Shown one piece after another: positions 15,259 to 31,503 of a DNA stretch of 64,000 nucleotides. The translations under genes and the position numbers were made by a program. Position 1 is the first letter of the stretch, and the number at the start of each line of letters is the position of its first letter. The stretch is from an uncultured Chloroflexia bacterium. Its GTDB lineage: Bacteria > Chloroflexota > Limnocylindria > QHBO01. The DNA is taken from contig CAWDVA010000008.1 of NCBI GenBank assembly GCA_963805645.1, positions 41,748 to 105,747 on the forward strand. Reading direction: 5' to 3'. Under the pieces are notes generated by a model, which ran no database searches, was not told where the DNA came from, and saw nothing but the letters and a program-made list of their open reading frames with translations.

Positions 15259-15999
15259 TCAGGGTCGCCGCCGGATCCAGCGCGCCGGTGCCGCGACGGT
15301 GTGCACCATGGAGCGGAAGCCGGAGTTGTGGCGGACGTTGACCAGGTACCGCCACTGGCGCCGCCGGTCGACGCGCGTGATCTCGGTCGTCGGCTCGGCG
15401 CTCACGCCGAAGCGGGCCGCCAGGTTGCGGACCGTGTCCTGCCAGAAGCGGTTGTTGACCCGGTGGCCGCCGAAGACGAGGCCGAGTTCGAAGATCGGGT
15501 CGCTCGCGCGCTCCAGGGCCTGCGCCTGGGCCACGATCACGCCATCCGCGTCGCGGAAGGCGCTGAAGGTGATCCACGCCGAGAGCATGTGGCCTTCCGG
15601 GGTCATCAGGGTGAAGGCGTCGGGGTCGGCGAAGACCACCATGACCCCGGTGTGGAGCTTGACCGGTCCTGCCGCGCTCACCGACAGCAGCGCGACCTCG
15701 CCGGGCCGGATGCCCGCGAGCGGTGCGTAGAACGTGTTGCCCTTTGGCCAGAACGAGGGGAATTCGGCCTTCCAGGTGGCGATCACCGCCTGGGGGGTCA
15801 GGTCAGGATCGGCACCGGCCAGGCGGATCCGAAAGGTCTTCTGCCACATCTGGCCAAAGCCCTGGAGCGGGCCGGAGAGGCGCCGACCCCGGACCGTGCC
15901 GGCCAGGGCCCCGCTCGGAACGTCGGCGACCTGCAGCCGCTCTGTCGGCTGCGCCCAGGCGTCCGTGTCGGTGCGCTGCGGCGATTCGGCGGCGTTCAT
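15259..15999 (-). CDS. conserved hypothetical protein (paralog of 24280-24966)
   Basis: 246 aa. Shares blocks with ORF 24280..24966: RRLSGP(L/I)QGFG..WQKT(F/Y)R..L, F.LMTPEGH, DPI(F/Y)ELG. Family not recognised with confidence (possibly DUF1990-like). Confidence 0.7.
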   Translation of the reverse strand: MNAAESPQRTDTDAWAQPTERLQVADVPSGALAGTVRGRRLSGPLQGFGQMWQKTFRIRLAGADPDLTPQAVIATWKAEFPSFWPKGNTFYAPLAGIRPGEVALLSVSAAGPVKLHTGVMVVFADPDAFTLMTPEGHMLSAWITFSAFRDADGVIVAQAQALERASDPIFELGLVFGGHRVNNRFWQDTVRNLAARFGVSAEPTTEITRVDRRRQWRYLVNVRHNSGFRSMVHTVAAPARWIRRRP

Positions 16000-16014: not shown

Positions 16015-16350
16015 CTATGCCGGGACCGCGGCCAGCGCGTCGGCCTCGGACTCGACGATGCCGATCGCCTCGTCGAGCCGCGTCAGCGAGAGGATCTGGC
16101 GGTAGTGATCGGACAGCCCGTAGGCCAGCATTCGCTGTCCCTGGCGCTGCGCGCGGACCAGGAGGGTGACGAGCAGGCCGATGCCGGTGCTGTTCATGTA
16201 CTCCAGTGGCGAGAAGTTCAGGACGATGGCCCGTGTCTGCGGGCCGGAGGCCTGCTGGTAGGCCTCCATCAGGGCAGCCTCGGTGGCGCCCGTCAGCTCC
16301 CCGTCGATGTCGATGACGCTCGTGCGCTCGCCCCCGCTTCGGACCTGCAT
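16015..16350 (-). CDS. STAS-domain anti-sigma-factor antagonist
   Basis: 111 aa. VIDIDGELTG...LNFSPLEYMNSTGIGLLV...GLSDHYRQILSLTRL is a typical SpoIIAA/RsbV fold sequence with a Ser in the phosphorylatable MNSTG position. Confidence 0.85.
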   Translation of the reverse strand: MQVRSGGERTSVIDIDGELTGATEAALMEAYQQASGPQTRAIVLNFSPLEYMNSTGIGLLVTLLVRAQRQGQRMLAYGLSDHYRQILSLTRLDEAIGIVESEADALAAVPA

Positions 16351-16392
16351 CGGTGTTCGCTCCTCGTTTCGTGTGCTGGCTCGGGCCGGCCG

Positions 16393-16728
16393 TCAGGCGA
16401 CCGCGCTCGACTCGTCCGCGTGGATCGACAGGAAGTCGGCCAGGCGCGTGATCTCGAAGATCTGCCGGTAGTGCTCCGAGAGCCCGAAGGCGTGGACCGG
16501 CAGCTTCTCGCTGCGGGCCCGCGCCAGGAGCTCCACGACCAGGGCGATCCCGGTGCTGTTCATGTAGGTCAGGCCGGCGAAGTTGAGGATCACGCGATCG
16601 GTGTCTCCGGTTGCCTCGGCATAGGCGGCCTGCAGGGCATCGGCGGCCCCGCCGTCGAGCTCGCCGCTGATGTCGATGACGCCCGCCCCGTCGTGGCGAC
16701 GGGCGGTCGCCGCGAAGCGCTCAGTCAT
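16393..16728 (-). CDS. STAS-domain anti-sigma-factor antagonist (second copy)
   Basis: 111 aa paralog of 16015..16350 (LNFAGLTYMNSTGIALVV...GLSEHYRQIFEITRL). Overlaps the upstream gene by 8 nt. Confidence 0.85.
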   Translation of the reverse strand: MTERFAATARRHDGAGVIDISGELDGGAADALQAAYAEATGDTDRVILNFAGLTYMNSTGIALVVELLARARSEKLPVHAFGLSEHYRQIFEITRLADFLSIHADESSAVA

Positions 16729-18334
16729 GGTTCTCCTCCAGGTGCATCACCAGCTCGACGGTCTGCCCGTCGGCGTCGGGGGTGACGTGCATGGCATCCA
16801 CGAGGCTCTGGATCAGGAACAGGCCCCAGCCGCGCGGCGGCTGCTCCCCGCGGAGCTTCGCGGCGATGTCCGGCGTCTCGGTGATGGGGATGGGATGCTC
16901 TCCGTGGTCCCGGATCTCCACGACCAGGTCGCGGTCGCGGCGCAGGACCCGGACGTCGACCGGGATCACCGGGTCGTTGTGGTTTCCGTGCTCGATGGCG
17001 TTCATGGCCGTCTCGGCGACCGCGGTCTTGAGCTTCTCGAGGCGCTCGCCGGCGAGCCCCGCTGGCGCCGCCGCGTCCGCCACGCGGCGCATCACCTCGC
17101 GCTCGTTGCCGGCCTCGGACGGCACCTGGAACTCGGCGAGCACGCCGGCGGAGGCTGCGTCCGGCGAGGTGTCGGTCGCGGTTCCGGACGCGTCGCCCTC
17201 CCACCGCAGCGCGACCAGGGTGATGTCGTCCTCCTGCTCCCAGCCCGGCCCGGTGAACCGCTCGAGCTCCGCCAGGACGCGGGCGATCACGCCGCCGCGA
17301 CCCTCGCGGGGCTGGGCCACCAGGTCGCCGAGGCGGGGGATGCCGAACATCTCGCGGTCAGGGGCGTGCGCCTCGGCGATGCCGTCCGAGTGGAGGAGGA
17401 CCACCTGGCCGCGAGCAAGCTGCGCGGTCGTTTCGTCGTACGCCATGCCGGGCATGAGGCCCAGCGGCATCCCGGTCGCGCGGAGTTCGGTGGCGCCGTC
17501 ATCGGTCCGCACGAAGGGAAGGTTGTGACCGGCATTCGCGAAGCGGAGCGCTCCCGTGCGTGGGTCCAGGACGCCGTACAGGCAGGTGACGAACATGCGC
17601 GAGGGGATGTCGCCGTGGAGGAGATCGTTGACCCGGGCGAGCACGGCACCGGGATCGCCCAGCTCCTCGCCCGCGGCGCGGAGCAGGGACCGGGTGGCAG
17701 CCATCACCATGGCGGCCGGGACGCCCTTGTCGGTCACGTCGCCGACGGTGAAGGCAATGGTCCCGTCCGGCCGCTCCAGGACGTCGTAGAAGTCGCCGCC
17801 CACCGCGCGCGCCGGGCGATAGAAGGCCTCGATGCTCCAACCAGCAGGCTGCGGCAGCTCGACCGGGAGGAAGTGCTGCTGGATCAGCTGCGCGACGGCG
17901 AGCTCCTGCTCCATGCGCTGGCGCTCGCGCGCCTCCGCTTCCTGCTCCCGGACCAGCTGCGCCACGCGAAGCGCGGGTGCGGCCTGTCCGGCCAGGTTGT
18001 CGAGGAGGCGCCGATCGTCGGAGGAGTATTCCTGCTCGGAGCGACGCGGACCCAGGTTCAGGGTGCCGATCAGCTCGCCGGAGCTCACGAGCGGAACGAC
18101 CAGCTTGACCCCCGCGTCGCGGAGCTCGCGCACGGCGGTCGAATCCAGGGTCAGGGTGTCGAGATCTACCGGGCCGTTCGCGGCCTGGAGATAGGCCAGC
18201 AGCGGATCGTTCTCGGTGATCTCGACGGCCGGCGTCTCGGCCAGGGTCTCGACCGAAGCTTGGGGTAGCTCGGCTTCCGCGCGTCGGTTGCCGCGTCGCA
18301 CGACGCGTCGCAGGGCCTGGGTGAAGGTCGTCAT
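16721..18334 (-). CDS. fused partial-GAF / PP2C (SpoIIE-type) phosphatase / HATPase_c anti-sigma Ser-kinase-like protein
   Basis: ORF 16721..18367 trimmed to ATG 18334 (GGAG lies 8 nt upstream). PP2C blocks: GGDFYDV...VGDVTDKGVPAAM...FANAGHN...HSDGI...DDITL. C-terminal RsbW-like block: ETAMNAIEHGN...VEIRDHGE...GWGLFLI. Confidence 0.85.
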   Translation of the reverse strand: MTTFTQALRRVVRRGNRRAEAELPQASVETLAETPAVEITENDPLLAYLQAANGPVDLDTLTLDSTAVRELRDAGVKLVVPLVSSGELIGTLNLGPRRSEQEYSSDDRRLLDNLAGQAAPALRVAQLVREQEAEARERQRMEQELAVAQLIQQHFLPVELPQPAGWSIEAFYRPARAVGGDFYDVLERPDGTIAFTVGDVTDKGVPAAMVMAATRSLLRAAGEELGDPGAVLARVNDLLHGDIPSRMFVTCLYGVLDPRTGALRFANAGHNLPFVRTDDGATELRATGMPLGLMPGMAYDETTAQLARGQVVLLHSDGIAEAHAPDREMFGIPRLGDLVAQPREGRGGVIARVLAELERFTGPGWEQEDDITLVALRWEGDASGTATDTSPDAASAGVLAEFQVPSEAGNEREVMRRVADAAAPAGLAGERLEKLKTAVAETAMNAIEHGNHNDPVIPVDVRVLRRDRDLVVEIRDHGEHPIPITETPDIAAKLRGEQPPRGWGLFLIQSLVDAMHVTPDADGQTVELVMHLEENHD

Positions 18335-18342: not shown

Positions 18343-18374
18343 ATTCTCGTTCGGGGGTGTCCGCCAATCGTTAC
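18343..18374 (-). promoter_or_regulatory. promoter-like element copy 1: GTAACG-N5-CGGACA-N9-GAGAAT (minus strand), upstream of the PP2C/kinase gene
   Basis: Read directly from the sequence. The -10-like hexamer ends 8 nt before ATG 18334, so the transcript would be near-leaderless. Confidence 0.5.
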
Positions 18375-18386
18375 GAGAAGTTGGAC

Positions 18387-18848
18387 CTAGGTCCGGGGAA
18401 GATCCGTGGTCGGTCCCAGTTCGCCGCCCTCCATCATCCGCTTGAGATTCGCCAGGCCGCGCTCCCACCCGCGTTCGTACGGGCCCACGAAGAGAGGACC
18501 GATGAGCCGCATAAGCCCGCGGAGGCGGAAGGTCGAGTCAACGTCGACCCGCGTGCCTTCCCCGATCGGCTCCAAGGTGAGCGTGATGTCGAACGGCGCG
18601 CTGGGTGAGAGCCCGCGCATGCCGGCCAGCCGCGGCGGCTCGTAGGCCGTGACGACCGCGTCATTCTCGCTCGCGCGTCCCAGGAACATCACGCGGGCAC
18701 GGCGAACCGAGCCCATGCCATGCGGCGGCGGGGTGGTCCACCACTCCTCCACCTGGGCCGGGTACCAGCGCCCGGTGAGGGTGACGTCAGTCAGGACGGA
18801 GAAGACATCCTCGATGGGCCGCCGGATCTCGGCGGTGTGGCGCGTCAT
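18387..18848 (-). CDS. SRPBCC-family (polyketide cyclase/START-like) protein
   Basis: ORF 18387..19085 trimmed to MTRHTAEIRRPIEDVFSVLTDVTLTGRWYP. The upstream extension is Pro/Arg-rich junk. Confidence 0.75.
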   Translation of the reverse strand: MTRHTAEIRRPIEDVFSVLTDVTLTGRWYPAQVEEWWTTPPPHGMGSVRRARVMFLGRASENDAVVTAYEPPRLAGMRGLSPSAPFDITLTLEPIGEGTRVDVDSTFRLRGLMRLIGPLFVGPYERGWERGLANLKRMMEGGELGPTTDLPRT

Positions 18849-18906
18849 GAGCGCGCTGCACCGGCCGGCGATATGACACCGGGCCGGAGGTCGGCGGGGA
18901 TCATGG

Positions 18907-19314
18907 TTACCGGGACGGTGCGGCCGCCGACCGAGCCGGCGACCGGTCGAAGGCTGCGGCGCTCCACAGAATTGTGAACAGGAGCTGGACGGCCACAATG
19001 CCCAGCAGCCGCGCATCGCCCAGGCCGGATGCCATGGCGAGAACCGTGACAACGGTGCCGGCGGCCCAGGCCACGGCGTTGCCAATCACGATTCCCCGCC
19101 ACGCGCCGCCATCGGTCACCCCTCGGGCGAACCAGTTGAGCGCGGCATAGCCGATGTAGGAGGCGCAGGCAAGCCGGACGAGCGCCACGCCCGTCGGATC
19201 GAGGGTGAGGCCGACGACGCCGGCCATGGCGGCGGGGGCGATGAGGCCTGCGCCGCCGGAGAGGAGGGAGAAGATCGCGGCGATGGTGGCCAGCCGGTGG
19301 GGTGACATGCGCAC
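18907..19314 (-). CDS. small 4-TM membrane protein, unknown function
   Basis: 135 aa with four hydrophobic helices and coding-like composition. Promoter-like element copy 2 lies upstream. Confidence 0.55.
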   Translation of the reverse strand: MRMSPHRLATIAAIFSLLSGGAGLIAPAAMAGVVGLTLDPTGVALVRLACASYIGYAALNWFARGVTDGGAWRGIVIGNAVAWAAGTVVTVLAMASGLGDARLLGIVAVQLLFTILWSAAAFDRSPARSAAAPSR

Positions 19315-19369
19315 AGGCTCCTCGTGTGCTCGCGTTCAGCTCGGCTGCCGGGAGATCCGGCGGCAGGGA

Positions 19370-19402
19370 AGGGTCGCGGGCGAGCCGTTCGCGAAGCGTT
19401 AC
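19370..19402 (-). promoter_or_regulatory. promoter-like element copy 2: GTAACG-N5-CGAACG-N10-GACCCT, upstream of 18907-19314
   Basis: Read directly from the sequence. Overlaps the stop codon of family member A. Confidence 0.45.
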
Positions 19403-20595
19403 GAACCATCTTGTCGGATCGGTTCGTCACGGATGCGGAGCCAGACCCACGCCGTGGTGGGTCGCAGGGTGCCGGCCGCCGCGGCGAGCAGCTCGGCCTC
19501 GACGGCGTGGAGATCCAGGCGGTCCCGGAGCCGTGCCCCGAAGCCGTCGGCGACCAGCGCCAGGTCGTAGCGATTGCGGTCGAAGCGGCGGTCGACCCAG
19601 CGCTGGATCCGCGAGCGGGCCGGCCGGAGGAGCGTGGCGGCGGCGAGCGTTGTGGCCGCCACGGCATAGGTCCGGCCGCCCGTGACGCTGGCGAGCAGCT
19701 CGGAGAGGACGAGGATGCCGCCGACCTCGATGCCCAGCAGGAACGCCGAGAGCACGGCGTAGGTCAGCGTGCGCTTGATGACGAGGTCGATGTCATAGAG
19801 GCGGTAGCGGGTAATGGCGATCGCAAGGGAGATCGGCAGGGGGAGCATCCCCAGTGCCCAGGCGACATCGGCCAGCACGCCGCCCGGGATGACGTTCGAG
19901 ACGGTGATTCCGGCGAGCATTGCCACCATCCCGAACAGGATCCACTTCAGCTGCTGGCGCTCGGCGCCCCGCGACCGCCGGAAGCGCACCGCCAGGGCCA
20001 CGGCCCCGGCGCCGAACAGGATCACGTAAATGAAGAAGCCGGCCTGGACGACGTCGTAGAGGGGCTTGAGGGCGGGCACGAAGATCGGGTTCGCGCCGTC
20101 GATCCCGCCCTGGCCCGCGCCGCCGCCGGGATCACCGAGAGCGAAGATCACGATCACGACCAGCAGGGTGATCCCGACCGCGACGTAGACGCGGTTCCAC
20201 GCCGGGGTCAGGGGCCGGCCGGTCGGGACGACGAAGGCCAGCAGCACCGGGCAGGACAGCGCGAGGATCCATGTCCACGACAGGGCGGCACCAATCTGCG
20301 GGAAAGGGACGGCGAGGGTGTGGTCGAACCCGGCAATTGCGTATCGTTCCACCGCGAAGGATCCGACCATGGCCAGGCAGAGCAGGCCCAGGAGCCATCC
20401 CACGCTGTTGCCGCGCTCGCGCGCGGCGATCAGGCCGCCCGCGATCCCGTAGGACAGGAGCAGCGGGACCATGATCGGGTCGCTCGGGTTTCCCGCTCGG
20501 GGATCGACGGCCTCCAGCCATAGGCCGGCGGCGCCCAGCACGGCGGCGACCGCGAGCGGCATCCAGGGAAGAGCTCCCCGCAGCACCCGGCTCAT
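19399..20595 (-). CDS. sensor-like polytopic membrane protein, family member A (no output domain)
   Basis: C-terminal 398 aa of ORF 19399..21576, from MSRVLRGALPW. About 10 TM helices. Motifs: NSVGW, PTGRPLTPAWNR, RFRRSRGAERQQLKW, ITRYRLYDID, VDRRFDRNRYD...VWLR. ATGA overlap with member B at 20592-20595. Confidence 0.8.
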   Translation of the reverse strand: MSRVLRGALPWMPLAVAAVLGAAGLWLEAVDPRAGNPSDPIMVPLLLSYGIAGGLIAARERGNSVGWLLGLLCLAMVGSFAVERYAIAGFDHTLAVPFPQIGAALSWTWILALSCPVLLAFVVPTGRPLTPAWNRVYVAVGITLLVVIVIFALGDPGGGAGQGGIDGANPIFVPALKPLYDVVQAGFFIYVILFGAGAVALAVRFRRSRGAERQQLKWILFGMVAMLAGITVSNVIPGGVLADVAWALGMLPLPISLAIAITRYRLYDIDLVIKRTLTYAVLSAFLLGIEVGGILVLSELLASVTGGRTYAVAATTLAAATLLRPARSRIQRWVDRRFDRNRYDLALVADGFGARLRDRLDLHAVEAELLAAAAGTLRPTTAWVWLRIRDEPIRQDGS

Positions 20596-21773
20596 GCGTC
20601 GCGGATCCAGACACCGATGAACGCCGGATGCATGGCACGGTCCACCGATCCGCGCAGGTCGTCCACGACGGCGTCGAGCTCCACCTCGTCGCGCAGCCGC
20701 GTGGAGAACGCATCTGCGATCCGCTGCGCATCGTATCGGCTCCGATAGAACCGCCGGTCGACGGCGGCCTGGACGCGTCGCCGGATCGGCCCGAAGAGGG
20801 CCGCCACCAGCAGGGTGGAGCCAGCGACGGCGAGCTCGGTCGTCCGGACGATGCTCGCGAGGAGGGCCTGCAGGGCGAGGACCGAACCGACGTAGACCGC
20901 CGCAAGCACGATCGTCAGCGCCGCGTAGACCAGCGCCCGGTTGATGAGGTGGTCGATGTCGAAGAGCCGATGGCGCACGATCGCGATGCCGATCGCCACC
21001 GGAATGCCCAGCAGCGCGACCGCGAGGAGCGTGGCCCCCACGGTCTGGTCGTGGACCTCGCTCGCGAGGAGCAGGTAGAGGACGAAGGTGGCGGCCGCGA
21101 CGCTCGCCGCCAGGGCGAGCCACTTGAGCTGCTGACGCTCGAGGCCGCGTGCGCGGCGGAAGCGGACGATCACCGCGGCGCTGGCGAGGGCCAGGCCGGC
21201 AACCAGCAGCATGACGCCGACCACCGCCATCGCTGCCACGATCCCCGGGGTATCGGGCGGGACCAGTCCTTCGGGTCGAGGGAGCGTTGCCCGACGCCAG
21301 AAGCCCAGCGCGAGCCCCACGGTTCCACTCAGGACTCCCGCGGCGACGATCGTGGCCCATGGCCGCCAGCGCGGTGACGGGAGCCGGCCGGTCGGGAAGA
21401 CGAGAAGCGGGAACGCTCCCACCGCGGCCATGGTCGGAACCCAGATCCACGACTCGAGCCACGCGCCCACCCATGCCGCGGGCACGGCGCCCGGTGCCGC
21501 GAGCAATCCATAGACAGCGTAGTAGTGCCCGGCGAACTGGAGGGCGGAGAGCAGGGCCCCGGCGATCATCAACCATCCGATCGGGTTCTCCGGGCGACGC
21601 CGGGCGATGGGCAGCCCCGACAGCGTGAAGACCACGGCGGCCACGCCCTGGAAGCCGGGAAATCCCCAGTCCGCGGCGCGGAGCGGCAGCGGCCAGCTCG
21701 CGATCACGAGGACGATGCCTGCGAGCAGCGCCAGGGTCTCGAGGGACAGGCTCGAGATGAGGATGGCGCTCAT
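20592..21773 (-). CDS. sensor-like polytopic membrane protein, family member B
   Basis: 393 aa. Motifs: NPIGW, FPTGRLPSPRWRP, RFRRARGLERQQLKW, IVRHRLFDID, VDRRFYRSRYD...VWIR. ATGA overlaps at both ends. Confidence 0.85.
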   Translation of the reverse strand: MSAILISSLSLETLALLAGIVLVIASWPLPLRAADWGFPGFQGVAAVVFTLSGLPIARRRPENPIGWLMIAGALLSALQFAGHYYAVYGLLAAPGAVPAAWVGAWLESWIWVPTMAAVGAFPLLVFPTGRLPSPRWRPWATIVAAGVLSGTVGLALGFWRRATLPRPEGLVPPDTPGIVAAMAVVGVMLLVAGLALASAAVIVRFRRARGLERQQLKWLALAASVAAATFVLYLLLASEVHDQTVGATLLAVALLGIPVAIGIAIVRHRLFDIDHLINRALVYAALTIVLAAVYVGSVLALQALLASIVRTTELAVAGSTLLVAALFGPIRRRVQAAVDRRFYRSRYDAQRIADAFSTRLRDEVELDAVVDDLRGSVDRAMHPAFIGVWIRDA

Positions 21774-22969
21774 TGCCGGCCGCTCGCCCTGTGCCGCACC
21801 CAGACGCTCACCGTGGCCGGCAGGAGGGCGGCGCGCGCGGTGGCCGCCAGCTCGTCCACGACGTCGTCAAGGTCCAGCCGGTCCCGCAGTCGGGTGCCGA
21901 AGCCGTCGGCGATCCGCGCCGCGTCGTACCGGCTGCGGTCGAAGCGGCGGTCGACCCAGCCCTGGATTCGGCGCCGGGCCGGCTGGAAGAGCGCCGCAAC
22001 CCCCAGGGTCGTGGCCGCGACGGCGTAGGTCTGCTCCCGGGTGATGCTCGACAGCACCGTCTGGAGGAGAAGGACGCCCCCGATCTCCACGCCCACCAGC
22101 ACGATCGTCAGGACGCCGTAGCTGATCGTGCGCTTGATGACCAGGTCGATGTCCAGGAGCCGATGGCGCAGGATGGCGATGCCGATGGCGAACGGCGTCG
22201 CGGCGACGCACAGGAGCCCGCCGACCCAGGTGACGTCGCTGAGGAACCCGGTGGTCACGAAGTTCGAGAAGCCGATGCCCACGATGCCCAGCGTCGCGGG
22301 ATACGCGAACCAGCGGAGCTGCAGCCGCTCCAGCGGTGTCCCGTGGCGGTAGCGCACGACCACCGCGGCCGCGGTCAGAAGGAACAGGGCAAGGCCGCTC
22401 ACCGCATCGATGGTGCCCGTGATCTCGAGCAACGGGTGCGGCAGCCGAATGGCGAGCGGGTTGTCGACGGCGACGTTCTGCATTGGGCCGGGCGTGAAGG
22501 CGGAGCCGAGAGTGACCAAGGTGATGGCAATCCCGGCGAAGACGCCCACCGGCCGCCAGCGCGGCGAGGGGAGGCGGCCATTCGGGAAGAAGAGCGGAAC
22601 GATGATCACCAGCCCGATCAGGCTTGGGATCATCAGCCAGTTGTCGACCCAGGCGACCGGGACCGTCAATGGGAGCCCCAGATCGTATCGGTCCTGGCTG
22701 AGCGAGAGGTAGTCGAACGCTGCGCTCTGGGCCGCCAGTCCCACGGAGCAGCCCAGCAGGATCCAGCCCACCAGGTTTCGCGATTGGCGTTGGACGATGA
22801 GGCCACCCACCACGCTGATGCCGAGCACCGCCAGTGCGGTCACAAGCAGGAACAGCGCATCCCCGAGCACGAATGCCCGGCCGTTGACCAGGCCGAGGGT
22901 AACCGCGAGGGCGAGCAGCGCGACGTTCGCGGCGATCACGGCCCGTGAGAGGATCACCTCGCGCCTCAT
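21770..22969 (-). CDS. sensor-like polytopic membrane protein, family member C
   Basis: 399 aa. Motifs: [54 protein letters not shown]...VWVR. ATGA overlaps at both ends. Confidence 0.85.
   Translation of the reverse strand: MRREVILSRAVIAANVALLALAVTLGLVNGRAFVLGDALFLLVTALAVLGISVVGGLIVQRQSRNLVGWILLGCSVGLAAQSAAFDYLSLSQDRYDLGLPLTVPVAWVDNWLMIPSLIGLVIIVPLFFPNGRLPSPRWRPVGVFAGIAITLVTLGSAFTPGPMQNVAVDNPLAIRLPHPLLEITGTIDAVSGLALFLLTAAAVVVRYRHGTPLERLQLRWFAYPATLGIVGIGFSNFVTTGFLSDVTWVGGLLCVAATPFAIGIAILRHRLLDIDLVIKRTISYGVLTIVLVGVEIGGVLLLQTVLSSITREQTYAVAATTLGVAALFQPARRRIQGWVDRRFDRSRYDAARIADGFGTRLRDRLDLDDVVDELAATARAALLPATVSVWVRHRASGRQ
21845..22189 (-). repeat. about 345-bp high-identity segment shared with 23035-23379 (3' parts of members C and D)
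   Basis: The encoded 115 aa differ at about 10 positions. Identical nucleotide runs exceed 50 bp, for example CGACAGCACCGTCTGGAGGAGAAGGACGCCCCCGATCTCCACGCCCACCAGCA. Confidence 0.75.
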
Positions 22970-24198
22970 TGTCCTGCCCTCGCCTTGAGCCAGACCCGGG
23001 TGGACGTCGGGCGAAGGGCCGCCGCCGTCGTCGTGGCCAGCTCGCCCACGACCTCGTCGAGGTCAAGGCGGTCGCGTAGCCGGCTGCCGAACCCGTCGAC
23101 GATCCGCGCCGCGTCATAGTGGCTGCGGTCGAAGCGCCGGTCGACCCAGCCCTGGATCCGCCGCCGGGCAGGCTGGAAGAGCGCCGCCACGCCCAGGGTG
23201 GTCGCGGCCACGGCATAGGTCTGCTCCTGGGTGACGCTCGACAGCACCGTCTGGAGGAGAAGGACGCCCCCGATCTCCACGCCCACCAGCAGGACGGTGA
23301 GGACCCCGTAGCTGATGGTGCGCTTGATGACCAGGTCGATGTCGAGGAGCCGATGGCGCAGGATGGCGATGCCGGCCGCGACAGGGAGCAGGGGGGCGAC
23401 CAGGAGGGTCAACAGGACGGTCGGGGAGCCCGCCTGTCCGAGGTACAGGAACGGGCTCGAGGCGATGAGGCCGATCTCGATGGTGCCGGCGAAGGTGAAC
23501 CACTTGAGCTGCTGCCGCTCGAGCCCGCGGGAGCGGCGGAAACGGACGACGAGGCCAACCACGGAGGCGAGCGCTGTCACGCTGGCCAGGAGCAGCCCGG
23601 CCGTCTCCACCCCCACCGCGACGTGCAGAGCCGGAATGTCGGGCGGCCCGGCGCCGGCGTTGGCCGCGGCCAGGGCGGCGCCCCGCAGAGGCCAGGTCGC
23701 GACCGCCATGGGGACGACCATGAGCGCCAGCGCCAGCCAGGCGAGCCATGCCACCGGTCGCCATCGGGGCGTGGGCGGATGGCCGCTCGGGAAGAGCAGG
23801 ACCGAGAGGCTGAGGAGCAGGACGTAGCCGGGCATCCAGGCCCAGACGCCCACCCATGAGGCCTCCGCGGCCAACGGAAGCGGCGTGGTCCCCGGGCCGT
23901 ACGATGCAAAGCCGTAGGCCTGCGTGAGCTGCGCCAGCGCCTGCGAGATTCCGATGGCAAGGAAGATCCAGCCGATGGCGTTCGCCGGACGTCGCGAGGC
24001 GATCACCCAGCCCACGATCGGGAACGTGGCGCCCAGCGCATAGCCCCCCAGCGTGTTGCCGTCCAGCGGCGGGATCGGGGCGCGGCCCGCCATGGTGATC
24101 GGCAGCGCTATCGCCCCGGCCTCGATGAGGAGACCCAATCCCGCCAGGAGGTGTGCCAGGCGGCGGCTGTGAAGATGGTCGCTGGTCTGCTCGGTCAT
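22966..24198 (-). CDS. sensor-like polytopic membrane protein, family member D
   Basis: 410 aa. Motifs: [54 protein letters not shown]...VWLK. GGAG lies 7 nt upstream of the ATG. Confidence 0.85.
   Translation of the reverse strand: MTEQTSDHLHSRRLAHLLAGLGLLIEAGAIALPITMAGRAPIPPLDGNTLGGYALGATFPIVGWVIASRRPANAIGWIFLAIGISQALAQLTQAYGFASYGPGTTPLPLAAEASWVGVWAWMPGYVLLLSLSVLLFPSGHPPTPRWRPVAWLAWLALALMVVPMAVATWPLRGAALAAANAGAGPPDIPALHVAVGVETAGLLLASVTALASVVGLVVRFRRSRGLERQQLKWFTFAGTIEIGLIASSPFLYLGQAGSPTVLLTLLVAPLLPVAAGIAILRHRLLDIDLVIKRTISYGVLTVLLVGVEIGGVLLLQTVLSSVTQEQTYAVAATTLGVAALFQPARRRIQGWVDRRFDRSHYDAARIVDGFGSRLRDRLDLDEVVGELATTTAAALRPTSTRVWLKARAGQ
23035..23379 (-). repeat. about 345-bp high-identity segment shared with 21845-22189
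   Basis: See the partner entry. The N-terminal two-thirds of C and D are highly diverged. Confidence 0.75.
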
Positions 24199-24279
24199 TG
24201 GCTCCGGCGCGGACGCGGGAGGGCGGGAATGGGATGCGGGGACGTCATCGTCGCGGAACGTCGGCGGAAGGGTACGCGA

Positions 24280-24966
24280 TCACCGGTCGCCCCGGAAGGC
24301 CGCGCGCACGCGGCGGGCCGGTGCGGCAAGGGTGTACAGGGTGGTGCGGATGATGGCGTTGCGCCACACGTTGCGTGCCTCGCGCCATTGGAGCCGGGCG
24401 TCGACGCGGACCTTGTCGAGCTCCACCGGCGCGGAGACTGCGAGCCGCTCCGCGAGCGAGGCCAGCACGTGGCGCCAGATAGCCTCCTGGGCCCGGGAGC
24501 CCCCCATCAGCCGGAAGCCCAGCTCGTAGATCGGGTCGTTGGCGCGCGCAAGCGACTGGATCTGGGCGATCGTGTCGTCGCCGGAGCGATGGGCGGTGAA
24601 GGTCACCATGCCCGACTCCGGGTGCCCCTCCGGCGTCATCAGGGTGAATGCCTCGTCATCGGCGTAGAGGACCAGGACACCGGTGGAGATGGGCATGCCC
24701 GACACGCGCGCGTTGATGAGGACCACCTCGCCGGGCGCCACGCCTGCGACGGAGGGGAAGAAGCGGTTCTGTGCCGGCTGGAGCTCCGGCAGGTGGGCCT
24801 TGAAGGTCGCCACCACCTCGGCGGGCGTCGCTGCCGACCCAAGATTCACCCGATACGTCTTCTGCCACAGGCTGCCGAACCCCTGGATGGGGCCGGAGAG
24901 GCGTCGGCCGGCGACGTTCAGGCTCCGGGCGCCGCCGGGATGGCTGGCGACGTCGATGCGGGTCAC
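24280..24966 (-). CDS. conserved hypothetical protein (paralog of 15259-15999)
   Basis: 228 aa, with the same conserved blocks as 15259..15999. Lies 81 nt upstream of member D on the same strand. Confidence 0.7.
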   Translation of the reverse strand: MTRIDVASHPGGARSLNVAGRRLSGPIQGFGSLWQKTYRVNLGSAATPAEVVATFKAHLPELQPAQNRFFPSVAGVAPGEVVLINARVSGMPISTGVLVLYADDEAFTLMTPEGHPESGMVTFTAHRSGDDTIAQIQSLARANDPIYELGFRLMGGSRAQEAIWRHVLASLAERLAVSAPVELDKVRVDARLQWREARNVWRNAIIRTTLYTLAAPARRVRAAFRGDR

Positions 24967-25079
24967 GGGCGCAGCCCAGGCCGAGGCATCGGTTCGGATC
25001 GTGGATGATGGGGCCGACCTTTGTCGGCGGGCTTCTGCGCTGGTTCCATCAGCGGGGTCCTCTGCTGCGTTGCCTTCGC

Positions 25080-25111
25080 ATGATCCGCGTCGGGCGTTCG
25101 CGAATCGTTAC
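25080..25111 (-). promoter_or_regulatory. promoter-like element copy 3: GTAACG-N5-CGAACG-N9-GATCAT, upstream of 24280-24966 and members D-A
   Basis: Read directly from the sequence, in the 214-bp gap between 25181 and 24966. Confidence 0.5.
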
Positions 25112-25180
25112 CGGGAACGGCGGACCCGGCGGTGCCGTGTGGGCCCCGCCGGGTCGTGTCGGGAGGACGGGATGCGATCG

Positions 25181-25588
25181 CTACTCGCCGCCGCAGATCT
25201 GGGGGTAGAGGGCGCAGATGCTGGTGACTCCCCTGTCGGCCGGTCCGTTGACCTGCGCCTGTACGGGGATCTCGTGGCCGGTGGGGCCAACACCGTCCCA
25301 GGTGCTCACGTCGGGCGTAAGGTCACCGTCGAAATCGAGGCCGATGAGGCCGTGGAATCCCTCGCCCGTCTCCGGGTTGATCACGCCCTGCTTGATCCGC
25401 TGCATGACGCCTCTGGTCGCCCATTCGACCTCTCCCGTCTGGGTGTTGATCACCACCTGCACGCCGGATGACACCGGCTTGCTCGCGTTGGTGCAATCGG
25501 TCGCCAGCGCCGTGGTGACAAGGGCCAGGCTTGCGCCCAGGCCGAGGCCAATGCCGGCGAGGCGGCGCGCACGTCGCGGGATGTTCAC
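25181..25588 (-). CDS. small secreted protein, unknown function
   Basis: 135 aa with a GTG start preceded by AAGGAGGGA. Signal peptide RRARRLAGIGLGLGASLALVTTALA. The mature part has 3 Cys (TDCT..., SICALYPQIC). Confidence 0.65.
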   Translation of the reverse strand: MNIPRRARRLAGIGLGLGASLALVTTALATDCTNASKPVSSGVQVVINTQTGEVEWATRGVMQRIKQGVINPETGEGFHGLIGLDFDGDLTPDVSTWDGVGPTGHEIPVQAQVNGPADRGVTSICALYPQICGGE

Positions 25589-25643
25589 GATGCTCCCTCC
25601 TTACGGGTGCATTCCGATGCTTGGGCGCTCGGATCTCGCGGCC

Positions 25644-25675
25644 AGTCTCCGCGAGGCGCGTCCGCGGATCGTTAC
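25644..25675 (-). promoter_or_regulatory. promoter-like element copy 4: GTAACG-N5-CGGACG-N9-GAGACT, upstream of secreted-protein gene 25181-25588
   Basis: Read directly from the sequence, about 55 nt upstream of the GTG start. Confidence 0.5.
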
Positions 25676-25748
25676 GGGACCCTTGGCACTCCCGAATCGG
25701 CGAGAACGGGGTATCCGCCCGGCTCGTGGCCGCGCTGGCGAGCCGCCC

Positions 25749-26956
25749 TCAGCCGGGTTCGGGTCCCTGGCCGGTTCGCACCCAGACCGACACCGAGGTC
25801 GGCTGGAAGGCGGAGTCCGTGGTGTGACCAGCTCCCCGCGGACGCCGTCAAGGTCGACGTGGTCGCGGAGGCGAGCGGCGAGCTCCTCGCTCAGTCGCGC
25901 GGCGTCGTAGCGCGAGCGGTCGAAGCGGCGGTCGACCGCCGCCTGCACCCGCTCCGCAGCGGTCCGAAGAGGGCGGCAACGGCCAGCGTCGAGACGGCCA
26001 CCGCCACCTGCGAGCTCCCGGTGATCGGCCGGGCCAGGGCCTGGAGGCCAAGGACGAGCCGGCAAAGGTGGCGCCCAGGATGAGGGTGAGGATCGCGTAG
26101 GCCAGGGTGCGGCTGATGATCCGGTCGATGTCGTACAGCCGGTAGCGCAGGATGGCGATCCCGATGGCGATGGGAATGACGATAAAGACGAGGGATGCGG
26201 CCGCCTGCAGGGCTCCAGCCAGGCGGGTGTGGCATCGCCCTGCATCGATCCGGTGGCCAGGCTGGCGAGCTGGGTCAGCAGGTACACCGACGCCACGACG
26301 CCGGCGGCGGCGGTCACCCACTTGAGCTGCTGTCGCTCCGCGCCCTGGGAGCGTCGGAAGCGCACCACCAGGCCCGCGGCTGAGAGCACGATCACCACCG
26401 GATGAGCGTCAACGCCGCGAGCGCCGCGTTCAGCACGCCCGCGAGGGCCTCGACGCCCAGGGGCTTGGGTACTCCCGGGTACCCAAGCTCGGTGAGGTCC
26501 CCCGGCGTCAGGAGCAGGATGAGCACCGCGCCCAGGAGCGTCGCGCCCACCAGCCAGTCGACCCACCGCCATCGGGGCGTCGGCAGCCTTCCAGCAGGGA
26601 AGGAGGAGCAGGAACCGACCATGGTCACGACTGCGGCACCCACATCACGCCATGGAGCACGATGGCCAGCGCGCCGCCCGGGAGGTCGCGGGACAGCGCA
26701 GAGGACCCGTAGGCTCCCAGGGGCTCCGCGGTCAGCAGCCCAATGGTCATCAGGATCCAGCCGATGGGGTTGCGAGGCCGTCGGATGACTAGGAGCCCGC
26801 CCACGCTGGCGTACGAAGCCACCCACAGCAACCCGTAGCCGCTGGGGAGGGCAATCGGTATCGCAGCTAGCGTGCCAACCACGACTGCGACGCTGGCGGC
26901 CACGCCAAGCCGGCCGCTCCGCAGTCGGCGCCCGCCGCTGCCTGTCCGCCGCTCAC
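25749..26956 (-). pseudogene. decayed copy (E) of the sensor-like membrane protein family, >=6 frameshifts
   Basis: Family motifs are scattered over all three minus-strand reading frames (track ORFs 26625.., 26392.., 25601.., 25848.., 25891..). They include [77 protein letters not shown], and the tail TDSAFQPTSVSVWVR (my translation). A GTGA overlap with copy F is preserved. Confidence 0.75.
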
Positions 26957-28174
26957 TCTCGCTCCTCCGGCGCGCGCACCCAGACCGAGACCGAGGGCGG
27001 GCGCAGGGCGGCGTGGGCGCTGCTGGCCAGCTCGGCCGACACGGCGTGGAGCTCGAGCCGGCGCGAAGCCGGGCGCCGAAGCCGTCGGCCACCCGGGCCG
27101 CGTCGTAGCGCGAGCGGTCGAAGCGCCGGTCGACGAGCGCCTGCACCCGGCGCCGGATCGGGCCGAACAGGGCCGCCACCAGCAGGGTCGAGACGGCCAC
27201 CGACACCTGGGACTCGGCGGTGACCGGGCGCAGCATGCGCCTGCAGCCCGAGCACCGCTCCGGCGAAGACCCCGGCCAGGATGGCGGTGAGGATCGGCGT
27301 AGGCCAGGGTTCGGTTGATGATCCGGTCGATCTCGTACAGGCGGTAGCGCAGGACCGCGATGCCGACGGCCACGGGGACTATTGGGTAGGTGAGGACGGC
27401 CGGGAACCACATCCACGTTCCGTTGGGGTCGACGAAGGCGATCATCGCGAAGGCGAAGATGAACGTGCCGAGCACGCCGGCGAGCGCGAACAGCAGCCAC
27501 TTGTACTGCTGGCGCTCGGCGTCGTGGGCGCGCCGGAACCGCAGCGGGAAGGTGCCGAGCGTGACGGCGAGGCCAACCAGGAAGACGACGTAGATGCCCT
27601 CGGTGAAGAGCGGCCAGCCCACCCACTCGCGGCCGATGCCGATGGGATTGGTCACCCGTGCGGAGGTGCCGTCCGCGAAGGAGATCCCAAACGATGGGGC
27701 GAACGCCTGCGCCACGGTGAACAAGGCCGGAACGGCGATGGCCAGGCGATTGGCCACTCCCATCCGCCTGGGTGAAAGGCGCCCGGACGGAAAGACTGCG
27801 GCGAGGGCGATCAACCCCATGAAGAAGAGTCCGGCTCCCCAGCCGTTCCCCCACGCCTGGAGCGTGACCTGCAGGTTCGCCTGGCCGTCCACCACCTGTG
27901 AGGCGCTTCCCGGCGGGCTCGACCCGACGATGACGAAGGTCAGGCCGATGCCAAGGACCAGCCAGCCGATGGGCTGGCGCGGCAGGCGTGCCACCAGGCC
28001 GATGCCGCCGAGCGCGAACGCCCAGAAGACGACCGCCCCGCCCCAGTTGGTGATGGTGAAGAACACCCCGAACGCGATGGCAAGCAGGGCGACCGGCAGG
28101 AGCAGACGGGCCGCCATGGGCAGGGAGTCTCGCGCGGTCTGCTGCGCCGGTCGCGGTTGCGTTGCCTGCGCCAC
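26953..28174 (-). pseudogene. decayed copy (F) of the sensor-like membrane protein family, 3 frameshifts
   Basis: ORF 26867..28174 is family-like up to ...[20 protein letters not shown]. The protein then continues in a second frame ([19 protein letters not shown]), a third ([58 protein letters not shown]) and back to the second ([11 protein letters not shown]...[13 protein letters not shown]). Each switch fits a 1-nt indel. Confidence 0.75.
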
Positions 28175-28244
28175 GGTGCTCGGTAACCTCCGTGCGGTTG
28201 GACGATCGGCTCCGCCCGAGGGTGGAAACCGTCCGCAGATGGGC

Positions 28245-28276
28245 AGGATGCCACGCTGCCGTTCGCCAGGCGTTAC
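28245..28276 (-). promoter_or_regulatory. promoter-like element copy 5: GTAACG-N5-CGAACG-N9-CATCCT, upstream of pseudogene F and divergent from the SARP gene
   Basis: Read directly from the sequence, in the 153-bp divergent region 28175-28327. Confidence 0.5.
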
Positions 28277-28327
28277 GAAATCCGGCTACGGCGGCGGCCG
28301 TGATGGCGGCGCGGTAAGGTACGGACC

Positions 28328-31193
28328 GTGAGCCGCCTCCGTCTCGCACTCCTTGGTCCGCCGCGCGTCGAGCTGGACACCGCGCCTGTCTCGTTCGACA
28401 CCCGCAAGGCTCTTGCGCTGCTCGCCGTTCTCGCCGTTCGCGGCGAGGCCCAGTCGCGCGACGCCCTGACGGCTCTGCTCTGGCCGGAGCATGACGCCGC
28501 CCACGCCGGCGGTGCGCTGCGCCGGACCCTCTCCGTGACCCGGGCCGGGATCGGCCCCGATGCCCTGCGGCTCGACGGTCGGTCCGTCGAGCTTGCCCCT
28601 TCGGGCCGCGTCGACGTGTGGCGGCTGCACGCCATCACGGATGGGGTCACACGGCACCATCCCGACGCCGATCCGGTCTGCGACCGCTGCCTGCGCCGGC
28701 TCGCCGAGATCCCGAACCTCGTCCGGGGCCGTTTCCTGGAGGGGTTCGGCCTCCGGGACAGCCCGGAGTTCGACGACTGGTCCGCGGGCACCGCGCAAGC
28801 GCTCGATCGCGAGGTGGCCGATGCGCTCGACCGCCTGTCGGACGCGCTCGCCGCGCGCGGTCGTACCAACCTCGCCCTCGACGCCGCGCGTCGGCGCCTC
28901 GCCATGGACCCGCTGCATGAGGAAGCGCACCGGCGCCTGATGCGCCTTCACTCGGAGGCAGGGGACAGGACCGGCGCCATCGCCCGCTACCGGGAGTGCG
29001 TTCGGATCCTGGACCAGGAGCTCGGCGTCGCGCCCATGCCGGAGACGACGGAGCTGTACCACGCGATCGCCGCCGGGCCGGCGGCGGCGCACCACGTGGA
29101 TGAGCCTGCGGAGTCCACCGCACCCCCGGTTGGGATCTCGGCCCTGCCCCTGATCGGACGTCGGGCGGACCTCGAGGTCGTGCTGGGGGCCTGGCGCCGG
29201 GCCGGTCAGGCGGGTCGCCTCGTCCTGCTCGAAGGCGAGCCGGGGATCGGGAAGACGCGCGTGCTCGAGGAGGTCTCGGCGGCAGTGCGGGCCGCCGGTG
29301 CGCAGGTGCTCTCCCTGGTTGCCCACGATGGCGAGCAGGCGATCGCCTATGCGCCCATCGTCGGTGCGCTCGAGAAGGCCATCCCCGACGCGGAGGGTGG
29401 CGGCGAGGGCGCCGGCTGGCTGCCGGGCCTCCCCGGCTGGGTTCGCGGCGAGCTGGCGCGCGTGGTGCCGGCCGTGGCCGGGGTCGGATCGGCGGTCGCC
29501 GCCATCGAGGGTCCCGGAGCGGAGATCCGCTTCATGGAGGGCCTGTCCCGGGCCCTCCTGGCCGCGGTGTCGGGGCCGCGGGCCGGGCTCATCTGCGTCG
29601 ATGACGTGCAGTGGGCGGATTCCGCGACGATCGCGATCCTCGGCTACGTGGCGCGGCGGGTCACGGAGGTACGGTGCTGCGTCGTCCTGGCCCGGCGACC
29701 TCCCGAGCCGGACCAGGATCCGCTTGCCGATCTTCTGCGCAGCGCGCGTCGGCGGGGCTCGCTCCTGGAGGTGCGCCCGGCGCGCCTGACGCGGGCGGAG
29801 GTGTCCCAGCTGGCCCGTGCGGTCGATACCCCGCTGGACGCGGACCGGCTGTACGCCGAGACCGAGGGGATCCCGTTCTTCGTTGCCGAGTACCTGGCGG
29901 CAGCGCGCGAACCCGGCACGGACGGCGCCGGCGGGGAGGCCACGCCGCGGCCCATCCGGGAGCTGCTGGCCGGGCGCATCGACGGTCTCAGCGCGGTCGC
30001 ACGCCAGGTCCTGGTTGCCGCGGCGGTCGTGGGTCGTTCGTTCGACGTGGAGCTGGTCCGCGCGACGAGCGGGCGCTCACCCGAGGAGACCGCGACCGGT
30101 GTCGAGGAGCTCCTGGCGCGCGGCCTGATCGTCGAGGCGGCGGGTACGGACGGAGCGCCGCGCTATGACTTCGATCACGCCAAGAGCCGGGAGGTCGCAT
30201 ACGCATCGGCCAGCCTCGCGCGCCGGCGGCTGCTGCATCGGCGGGCCGCGCTCGCACTCCAGCAGCCGGCAACCCGGCGCACCGGGGGCCACGCCTTGGC
30301 AGCCACCATTGCGCGCCATCTCCGCGAGGCGGGTGATGATCGCGGGGCCGCCCGCTACCTGCGCATCGCGGGGGACGAGGCCGCCGCGGTGTACGCGCAC
30401 GAGGAAGCGCTCGACCTGTATCGCTCAGCCATCGCACTCGACCCGGCCTCCCCCGGGCCGCTCCACGAACGCATCGGCACCGAATGGACCCGCCTTGGGC
30501 GCTATGACGACGCCGTGGCCGCCTACGAGGCTGCGGCGGCCGCGGCCGACCCGCGCGACGCCTGGCGCATCGAGCGGCGCCTCGCCGAGGTCCACGGTCG
30601 TCGCGGCGAATGGTCGCTGGCCGAATCGCACCTCGCGGCGGCCCTCACGGGCGTCGCCCCGGACGCGCTCGGCGACCGCGCCCGCCTCACCGCCGACCGG
30701 GCCCTGGCGGTCCATCGGCTCGGTGATCATCGGCGCAGCAGGCGCCTGGCGGGCGAAGCGCTCGAGACCGCGCAGGCGGCGCGGGATCCCGCCTGCGTCG
30801 CGCAGGCTCACAATCTGCTGGGGATCCTCGCCCGTGACGCCGGCCACCTCGTACAGGCACGCCGCCACCTGGAGGAGAGCCTGGCCCTGGCCAGCGCTGA
30901 GCACGTCGAGGAGGCGCGCATCGCGTCGCTCAACAACCTGGCGCTGCTGTCGGTTGCTGCCGGGGACCCCGCGCGGGCGGTCGAGACGGCGCGCGCGGCG
31001 CTCGATGCGGCGGTCACCATCGGCGATCGCCACCGGGAGGCCGCCATCCGCAATAACCTCGCCGATGCGCTGCACGCGGCGGGGCGACGGGACGAGGCGA
31101 TCGACGAGCTGAAGCAGGCGGTCACTGATCTTCGCGGAGGTCGGTCGGCCGGGCGGGATGGAGCCCGAGATCTGGAAGCTCGTCGACTGGTAG
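28328..31193 (+). CDS. AfsR/SARP-family regulator (OmpR-type wHTH + BTAD + NB-ARC/P-loop + TPR), frameshifted about 25 codons before its natural stop
   Basis: ORF 28328..31393. N-terminal [12 protein letters not shown]...[12 protein letters not shown]...ALLWPE is the wHTH. The BTAD block is [29 protein letters not shown]. The Walker A is [12 protein letters not shown]. Multiple TPR-like helices follow. After about 31120 the in-frame text becomes Arg/Cys-rich junk. The +1 frame reads [23 protein letters not shown] and stops at 31191-31193. Confidence 0.85.
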
Positions 31194-31231
31194 GCCTACG
31201 TGCGGTGCTCCGCTCGGCCCGACCCATCTTC

Positions 31232-31322
31232 CGACTCGTCAGATGCTGCTGCCACGAGCGCTACCCGGCCGATCCTGACCGTTTCTCCTTCTCGACTCGC
31301 CAGATGCTGCTGCCAGTAGCGC
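31232..31322. repeat. imperfect ~30-bp direct repeat (CGACTCG(T/C)CAGATGCTGCTGCCA..AGCGC) with 61-bp period in a 310-bp noncoding gap
   Basis: Read directly from the sequence, between the natural stop of the SARP gene (31193) and the zf-UBP gene end (31504). Confidence 0.6.
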
Positions 31323-31503
31323 AAGGCGCCTTCCGGCGAGGATCCGGGGCGTCGAATGCGGGAAACTGCGCTCGGCGTTGCCACCGGGAGTGACGAGATG
31401 CGCCGATGGAGGCGCCTTACGCTACGGTGACGAGCAGGTGACGAGTCCACCGTCGCCATCGGCCGATACCGGGCGTCATGCGCACGGGGGCACGCCGCGC
31501 GCT

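Follow-up and report, generated by a model that had tools for sequence, protein, structure and literature searches.

A conserved two-box promoter element next to a large SARP gene points to a non-biosynthetic regulon in uncultured Chloroflexota

Promoters controlled by SARP (Streptomyces antibiotic regulatory protein) regulators carry direct repeats spaced at 11 or 22 bp, of which the 3' one is separated from the -10 hexamer by 8 bp; the afs box bound by AfsR lies at -40 to -19, where it overlaps a poor -35 sequence, and is followed by a suboptimal -10 (PMC10936776). We describe a similarly organised element in DNA from an uncultured member of the Chloroflexota (lineage Limnocylindria), of which a stretch of 64 kb, the window in what follows, was analysed. 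Five copies of the element, two hexamers in direct repeat followed by a -10-like hexamer, lie on the minus strand between 18.3 and 28.3 kb, and the last of them is divergent from a gene for a large SARP. These five elements are probably activator-dependent promoters of a single regulon, and the divergent SARP is the protein most likely to bind them.

The AfsR protein of Streptomyces coelicolor, studied at the afsS promoter (8HVR, 8K60, 8JKE), is likewise a large SARP in which a winged helix-turn-helix (wHTH) and a BTAD domain are joined to an NTPase and tetratricopeptide repeats (TPR). In both systems two 11-bp direct repeats take the place of a poor -35 sequence ahead of a suboptimal -10, and the N-terminus of the window regulator gives a profile match to AfsR residues 25-286 (E ~1e-17). 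The window protein is nevertheless not an orthologue of AfsR: its NTPase is AAA_16/LAL-like, whereas that of AfsR is NB-ARC; its recognition helix reads ALRRTLS rather than AVRTYAS; its boxes are GTAACG and NKRACG rather than CGTT(T/C)ATCGNN; its host belongs to the Chloroflexota and its targets are not antibiotic regulators. The SARP-LAL protein PimR of Streptomyces natalensis offers a second comparison. It also combines an N-terminal SARP with a LAL/guanylate-cyclase-like P-loop ATPase and TPR, is cluster-situated and divergently arranged, and binds heptameric direct repeats with 4-nt spacers at its pimM operator. However, that operator is built of three repeats, which leave the -35 sequence free, while the element described here has two repeats in a class-II-like position and serves five target promoters, in a non-biosynthetic regulon that is conserved across phyla. 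The main target operon of that regulon recalls the RsbU/RsbV/RsbW type of partner switching, of which OsaC in Streptomyces and Rv1364c in M. tuberculosis are examples, since it encodes a fusion of a PP2C phosphatase to an RsbW-like kinase together with two STAS proteins. It differs in that the conserved cluster contains no sigma factor gene and in that the operon is apparently driven by a SARP-type promoter, as we predict, and not by its own sigma factor.

A scan of the window with GTAACGNNNNNCGRACR (GTAACG-N5-CGRACR) gave five exact matches, all on the minus strand (Table 1). Dinucleotide-preserving shuffles of the window contained 0.01 matches on average, and none of 100 shuffles reached five. 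The first-pass annotation of this DNA had listed five promoter-like copies with a NANNNT hexamer 9 nt 3' of the repeats (10 nt in one); its coordinates are exact, the hexamer is present at all five sites and the 10-nt spacer belongs to site 2. The same annotation placed every copy between genes and upstream of a minus-strand gene. This is true of all five, with the detail that the TAA at which membrane gene A stops (19399-19401) falls inside box 1 of site 2 (G-TAA-CG). The DNA flanking the five copies is otherwise dissimilar, so they are not copies of a longer repeat. We also scored the window with a weight matrix trained on 87 sites, all from loci in which the regulator shares no more than 51% identity with that of the window. 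The five sites scored from 31.0 bits down to 16.6 bits, the latter at site 2, which is the weakest, against 6.2 bits for the next best position and a maximum of 12.7 bits in 20 shuffles. This gap indicates that the window holds exactly five sites, all within 18.3-28.3 kb. Two one-mismatch matches were dropped as sites, each with a matrix score far below threshold: one at 16354-16370, in the ribosome-binding region between the STAS genes, and one at 45155-45171. The G+C content of the region is about 71%, and no promoter of the TTGACA/TATAAT type was found in 13.5-28.5 kb.

Table 1. Predicted promoter elements, their target units and the divergent regulator gene in the 64-kb window
Feature	Position	Strand	Remarks
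Site 1, GTAACG-N5-CGGACA	18358-18374	-	31.0 bits; predicted promoter of PP2C/kinase operon
Site 1, -10-like GAGAAT	18343-18348	-	9 nt after box 2
Site 2, GTAACG-CTTCG-CGAACG	19386-19402	-	16.6 bits; predicted promoter of 4-TM/SRPBCC pair
Site 2, -10-like GACCCT	19370-19375	-	10-nt spacer
Site 3, GTAACG-ATTCG-CGAACG	25095-25111	-	30.4 bits; predicted promoter of DUF1990-D-C-B-A operon
Site 3, -10-like GATCAT	25080-25085	-	
Site 4, GTAACG-ATCCG-CGGACG	25659-25675	-	31.0 bits; predicted promoter of small secreted protein gene
Site 4, -10-like GAGACT	25644-25649	-	
Site 5, GTAACG-CCTGG-CGAACG	28260-28276	-	21.1 bits; predicted promoter of membrane paralogs F-E
Site 5, -10-like CATCCT	28245-28250	-	
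Large SARP, 1021 aa: OmpR-type wHTH + BTAD (residues 1-250), AAA_16 P-loop NTPase, TPR	28328-31393	+	Pfam, profiles
TAAGGT, probable -10 of the SARP gene's own promoter	28315-28320	+	7 nt before GTG start; putative function
Unit 1, first gene: GAF-PP2C (SpoIIE)-RsbW-like kinase (HATPase_c_2) fusion	16721-18334	-	
Unit 1, two STAS (anti-sigma-antagonist-like) genes	16393-16728, 16015-16350	-	Pfam
Unit 1, distal (probable): DUF1990-like 246-aa gene	15259-15999	-	synteny in most loci
Unit 1, distal (probable): CrtI-like FAD oxidoreductase	13795-15231	-	synteny in most loci
Unit 2 (18387-19308): 4-TM (four-transmembrane) protein; SRPBCC protein	18907-19308; ~18387-18848	-	
Unit 3 (19399-25049): DUF1990 protein	24280-24966, or to 25049 with frameshift	-	
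Unit 3, ~400-aa membrane paralogs D; C; B; A	22966-24198; 21770-22969; 20592-21773; 19399-20595	-	
Unit 4: 135-aa protein	25181-25588	-	signal-peptide-like N-terminus
Unit 5: membrane paralogs F and E	25601-28174	-	frameshifted in this assembly

Related loci were collected by scanning species-representative genomes with the regulator protein, which returned 80 loci; the comparison set numbers 82, all retrieved through the regulator. The closest (74-96% identity in the regulator) are from uncultured 'Chloroflexia' or Limnocylindria genomes, which places the window outside Streptomyces. The remainder, at 28-51% identity, come from Chloroflexota, Dormibacterota and Actinomycetota (Thermoleophilia, Acidimicrobiia, Nitriliruptorales, Nocardioides and Mycobacteriales), with one genome labelled Isosphaeraceae. 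Of the 82 loci, 36 contain the window pattern in its exact form, and the somewhat wider pattern GTAACG-N5-N[GT][GA]AC[GA] has 129 matches in the 1.36 Mb of related loci compared with 5 in reversed-sequence controls; at a matrix score of at least 14 bits the corresponding numbers are 150 and 6. Where cluster genes are present, a matrix site nearly always is too (64 of 66 loci). The motif persists at 40% protein identity across three phyla, at which distance the neighbouring bases are not conserved. Conservation in orthologous loci, a check proposed along with the first-pass annotation, is therefore very strong. Individual window sites are also kept among the nearer relatives, site 3 in loci L002-L007 and site 4 in L001 and L004-L007.

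The position of the motif relative to genes is equally regular. Directly upstream of cluster families lie 83 of 109 strict matches, distributed over genes for the PP2C/kinase (35), membrane paralogs (32), DUF1990-type proteins (8), small secreted proteins (4), 4-TM proteins (2), SRPBCC proteins (1) and the FAD oxidoreductase (1). In most loci the first base of box 1 is 38-42 nt from the PP2C/kinase start codon, and this constancy is an independent argument for a promoter. A -10 at +26 to +31 puts the expected start site at about +38, where it coincides with the ATG, and we therefore predict leaderless or near-leaderless transcripts. At site 1 of the window the ATG (18332-18334) is 8 nt 3' of GAGAAT, so the transcript is predicted to be leaderless or nearly so, and this layout is repeated in most of the 35 orthologous PP2C/kinase promoters. 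An Rfam scan of the window gave no matches, and the leaders are therefore without a known RNA element. In the clade of the window, the leaders of the SARP-proximal membrane genes, at 28229-28238 in the window and in L001, L004, L005, L006 and L007, have a conserved CTGCGGA(C/T)GG just 3' of the -10 that includes another CGGACG, in loci too closely related for its significance to be weighed.

We also ran the comparison in reverse, scanning metagenome contigs by motif alone (CGTAACGNTNNCNGGACG), with NGGACG variants only. Among the 120 matches listed, 39 are on the same strand as, and no more than 800 bp upstream of, homologues of the cluster families (30 membrane paralogs, 8 PP2C/kinase genes and 1 SRPBCC gene), and the A...T of the -10 is present in 34 of those 39 sites. 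Two Actinomycetota loci show a different arrangement: in L077 (14794-14878) and L080 (14763-14830) two copies of the motif, separated by about 50 bp, are arranged back to back like divergent promoters, some 2 kb past the regulator gene on its 3' side.

An alignment of all instances defines the element more closely. In positions counted from box 1 the conserved bases are C at -1, GTAACG, T at +7, C at +10 and N-G/T-R-A-C-G at +11 to +16; the -10 contributes A at +27 (79 of 87 sites), A at +30 (50 of 87) and T at +31 (68 of 87). The generalised element is GTAACG-N5-N(G/T)(G/A)ACG plus nAnnAT, and the DNA around these islands has no information content, which also disposes of a third repeat 5' of box 1. 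The variants of box 2 (CGGACG 29, GGAACG 28, CGAACG 18, GTGACG 17, CGGACA 12 and GGGACG 12) resemble GTAACG, so that together the boxes form a genuine direct repeat of G(T/G)(A/G)ACG with a period of 11 bp. Their starts are exactly 11 bp apart in the five window sites and in 129 sites of related loci, and the C at -1 is repeated at +10, giving the 11-bp units C-GTAACG-nTnn and C-(C/G)(G/T)(G/A)ACG-nnnn. If nAnnAT is set at -12 to -7 of the promoter, the 22-bp element spans about -39 to -18. It thereby falls within 1 bp of the afs box, which bears out the proposal that the copies follow the architecture of SARP promoters. The second box, as conserved as the first, then lies at -28 to -22. The element contains no hexamer resembling TTGACA (the bases at -35 to -30 are ACGnTn), and the -10 retains only A(-11), A(-8) and T(-7), its first position being G or C and not T. 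Lack of a -35 together with a weak -10 is a hallmark of activator dependence, and for this reason we regard the promoters as activator-dependent.

The protein encoded divergently from site 5, 52 nt away, had been called an AfsR/SARP-type regulator, and Pfam and profile matches agree with that description, locating a SARP domain, a P-loop NTPase and TPR repeats. The BTAD domain matches PF03704 (E = 5e-17, residues 96-247). A profile of residues 1-268 matches AfsR (8hvr/8k60, residues 45-284) and EmbR (2fez, residues 10-270) across the whole wHTH-BTAD region with E ~1e-17, and a profile of residues 1-105 matches the DNA-binding domains of EmbR (2fez, E = 1.9e-9) and AfsR (8hvr, E = 8.7e-6). Pfam reported no Trans_reg_C match in the regulator at E < 0.01, and the full-length protein matched only TPR proteins among PDB sequences; the N-terminal profiles were needed to reach AfsR and EmbR. 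Against the AfsR equivalog model NF053617 of NCBIfam the regulator scores 40 bits, in its TPR part only, where the cut-off is 1430. The central domain is of the AAA_16 type and resembles the ATPase region of a TOMM kinase/cyclase; because this ATPase is AAA_16/LAL-like, the regulator is closest to the SARP-LAL class.

Several observations tie this protein to the motif. Of 76 regulator genes, 57 have a divergent element no more than 250 bp away, and of the seven families that are conserved in the cluster the SARP alone has a DNA-binding domain; no response-regulator or sigma factor gene was found among the other window open reading frames (ORFs) that were scanned. In the regulators that accompany the motif, (D/E)TRKA and (L/F)RRTLS are invariant, and the latter aligns with the recognition helix of AfsR, which carries the base-contacting residues T88 and R92 (PMC10936776). 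At these two positions of the alignment the window protein has R66 and V70, respectively. The motif is present in 68 of the 71 loci whose regulator has this wHTH signature and in none of the 7 loci that deviate from it (Fisher p = 4.5e-8). The regulator gene seems to have a promoter of its own. Orthologous SARP genes in many loci have TAAGGT, TACCGT or TATCGT 6-9 nt before the start; a TAnnnT was seen in L034, L038, L049, L050, L056, L057, L059, L063, L070 and L075, and TACCGT in many. This position fits a leaderless SARP transcript. In many Chloroflexota loci only 20 nt separate the TAnnnT from box 1, which therefore lies at about -38 to -33 of both divergent promoters, a hint that the SARP may regulate its own gene.

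We infer that the SARP activates its targets in the manner of AfsR. By that analogy, two SARP domains would bind side by side, one to each 11-bp repeat, and would replace the missing -35 contact by holding region 4 of sigma-A and the core of RNA polymerase. Bound in this way, the protein would switch on unit 1 (the PP2C/kinase gene, the two STAS genes, the DUF1990-like gene and the FAD oxidoreductase gene), the 4-TM and SRPBCC pair, the DUF1990 gene with paralogs D-C-B-A, the small secreted protein gene and membrane paralogs F-E; its NTPase and TPR part presumably gates its activity in response to a signal. Some findings weigh against this account. The half-sites are consistently unlike one another (GTAACG and NKRACG), which SARPs tolerate and which is not predicted from them, and 9 nt (10 in site 2) separate box 2 from the -10 where the textbook value is 8. 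The co-occurrence of SARP and motif is partly built in, because all 82 loci were retrieved through the SARP, and phylogeny and the manner of sampling the loci both confound the correlation of motif with wHTH signature. Among the matches listed in the reverse scan, some motif-bearing metagenome contigs of 9-14 kb have no adjacent SARP gene. The specificity of the motif was judged within the 64 kb and the related loci.

The contigs without an adjacent SARP would be accommodated if the promoters were real and activator-dependent but were bound by some other OmpR/PhoB-type wHTH regulator encoded elsewhere (GlnR-like or PhoP-like), with the SARP a mere neighbour or a co-regulated target. Activators of the PhoB/OmpR family also use 11-bp direct repeats in place of a -35, and the GlnR boxes of actinomycetes are sites of an OmpR-type wHTH with an 11-bp period. 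A GlnR box consists of an a-site, gTnAc, six nucleotides and a b-site, GaAAC (PMC10235972); written as GTAAC-n6-(G/C)GRAC, with GTAAC-n6-GGAAC or CGGAC as examples, our motif resembles one such box. The half-site resemblance is real, and because of it another OmpR-type regulator remains the main rival to the SARP, although we consider it unlikely. GlnR elements normally comprise two 22-bp boxes (four sites) at genes of nitrogen metabolism, whereas each promoter here has a single 22-bp box, fixed 9 nt from the -10 and with a second half mostly CGGACG or GGAACG, and the genes concerned are unrelated ones for signalling and membrane proteins next to a SARP gene. The absence of a response regulator from the conserved families and the scanned window ORFs, the closeness of the motif to the SARP start in three phyla and its association with the SARP wHTH signature all speak for the SARP as the binder. 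A separate question is whether the SARP, if it binds, mainly represses or has a dual role, for example by autoregulating the divergent promoter, in which case nAnnAT would mark constitutive promoters. In favour of this, no more than about 50-90 bp lie between the site and the SARP start, and a TAnnnT belonging to the SARP gene precedes that start by 6-9 nt; with 20 nt between box 1 and this -10 in many loci, box 1 falls in the upstream regions of the two divergent promoters. A mainly repressive or dual role is quite improbable, however, as the target promoters have the missing -35 and weak -10 of activator-dependent promoters and the characterised SARPs are all activators at this position.

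The hexamer GTAACG could instead be read directly by an alternative sigma factor, either an extracytoplasmic function (ECF) factor with a -35 of the GTAAC/GGAAC type or some sigma factor that is controlled by the PP2C/kinase and STAS proteins and, like sigma-B, autoregulates its own operon. Transcription of a partner-switching operon by its cognate sigma factor is frequent, as in the sigB operon of B. subtilis, and GGAAC is common as an ECF -35. Promoters of sigma-D, an ECF factor of Corynebacterium and Mycobacterium, have GTAAC(A/G) as the -35 in Corynebacterium, followed by 15 nt and CTCGAT (PMC6338062). The shared hexamer is set in a different geometry here: 20 nt separate GTAACG from the -10 hexamer, the spacing is about 6 nt too long, and in place of a GAT some 15-18 nt after the -35 we find unconserved bases at +23 to +25 and a conserved A/AT 21-25 nt after GTAAC, at +27 and +30/+31. 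We rejected the sigma-D/ECF reading of GTAACG on its spacing, and a sigma-54-like GG/GC spacing on the sequence itself. Recognition by a sigma factor would, in addition, leave unexplained the equally conserved second repeat unit, inside the would-be spacer at -28 to -22 and in 11-bp register with the first, and there is no sigma factor gene in the conserved cluster; taken as a whole, we give an alternative sigma factor very little weight. The idea that the copies lack a regulatory function, being chance matches or remnants of duplicated DNA, is effectively refuted by the counts, the matrix scores and the conservation. Duplicated upstream regions are conceivable in a region so rich in paralogs, yet five matches were found where 0.01 were expected, the flanks of the copies are dissimilar, and in three phyla the motif has been conserved at a protein identity at which its neighbouring bases have not.

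Gene models for the cluster were derived from ORF and third-codon-position G+C (GC3) analysis together with Pfam. The tblastn map of the loci reveals one syntenic cluster across phyla, in the order SARP gene, one to eight divergent membrane paralogs, PP2C/kinase, STAS, STAS, DUF1990-like protein and FAD oxidoreductase. The earlier proposal of a single regulon that joins a membrane-protein array to a partner-switching module is upheld by this synteny and by the motif ahead of both parts, with a span of about 13.8-28.3 kb. Unit 1 probably extends through the 246-aa gene and the FAD oxidoreductase gene to 13795, because these genes are contiguous and are syntenic in most loci. Of the five units listed in the first-pass annotation all stand, but the 'paralog' at the head of D-C-B-A is a DUF1990 protein, 47% identical to the product of the 246-aa gene that follows the STAS genes. 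Much as at site 2, the PP2C/kinase promoter of several other loci adjoins the end of the membrane gene before it; such stop-overlapping or abutting sites are best read as internal promoters in tightly packed arrays.

The membrane paralogs D-C-B-A are 36-53% identical to one another and belong to a family of about 400 aa with more than 3,000 relatives, all called hypothetical, for which Pfam and NCBIfam have no model. A few homologues have a C-terminal class III adenylate cyclase and paralog A has a weak match to HisKA_7TM, features that suggest a stand-alone membrane sensor module. An adenylate cyclase encoded at 33017-34459 was ruled out by comparison as a relative of these paralogs. Paralogs F and E had been described as pseudogenes, and the frameshifts are there, but the status of F as a pseudogene is in doubt. 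Over 1.58 kb F (26750-28330) matches an intact gene from a JGI contig (L002) at 99.6% identity, the differences being five 1-bp indels and only 2 substitutions. As indels outnumber substitutions, errors of long-read assembly fit better than decay, and 'pseudogene F' may be an artefact of the assembly. L003 and L004 also have a broken first membrane gene. The conserved N-terminus of the DUF1990 gene (MEPAQKPA..., 24966-25049) is out of frame relative to its orthologue in L004, another indel in the 25-28 kb region.

Other parts of the window hold features of separate interest. Genes for the large and small subunits of a NiFe hydrogenase, the small subunit with a Tat signal, are located at the edge of the window (2-2619), which fits a soil trace-gas oxidiser. 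At 39057-43952 two adjacent genes encode large proteins (1099 and 419 aa), each with a lamin-tail domain and a C-terminal FIMAH domain. A 703-aa ORF at 47402-49513 is a fusion of a luciferase-like monooxygenase to a UbiA prenyltransferase and has an SRPBCC/polyketide-cyclase-like gene upstream of it.

The mechanism that we propose is a familiar one. The novelty lies in the sequence of the operator, in the phyla that host it and in what the regulon contains: DUF1990 proteins, an oxidoreductase, sensor-like membrane paralogs in arrays and a partner-switching module that lacks a sigma factor. No earlier description of the cluster or the motif was found in the literature that we searched, which covered SARPs of Chloroflexi, GTAACG repeats and SARPs together with partner switching. 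It is conceivable, if doubtful, that the conserved cluster is a self-contained circuit shared by Chloroflexota, Dormibacterota and Actinomycetota, in which a partner-switching module without its own sigma factor acts on the SARP, the arrays of 7TM-like membrane paralogs feed into the module as sensors and the five promoters provide positive feedback. If so, a sigma-independent partner switch would control a 'sigma-adapting' activator.

SARPs are regarded as regulators of actinomycetes, mostly Streptomyces, that turn on antibiotic gene clusters. The regulon that a regulator of the SARP type and a nearly invariant operator seem to govern here is not biosynthetic, and its synteny extends over uncultured soil Chloroflexota, over Dormibacterota and over deep-branching Actinomycetota. 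The operator is precise enough to be tested, C-GTAACG-nTnnC-NKRACG, 9 nt, nAnnAT, and is among the few promoter models available for these uncultured phyla, with evidence of leaderless transcripts. It assigns to a regulon several families that have lacked annotation (the large membrane family, the DUF1990 proteins and the small secreted protein), and it provides a predicted case of a partner-switching operon that is driven by an activator and not by its own sigma factor.

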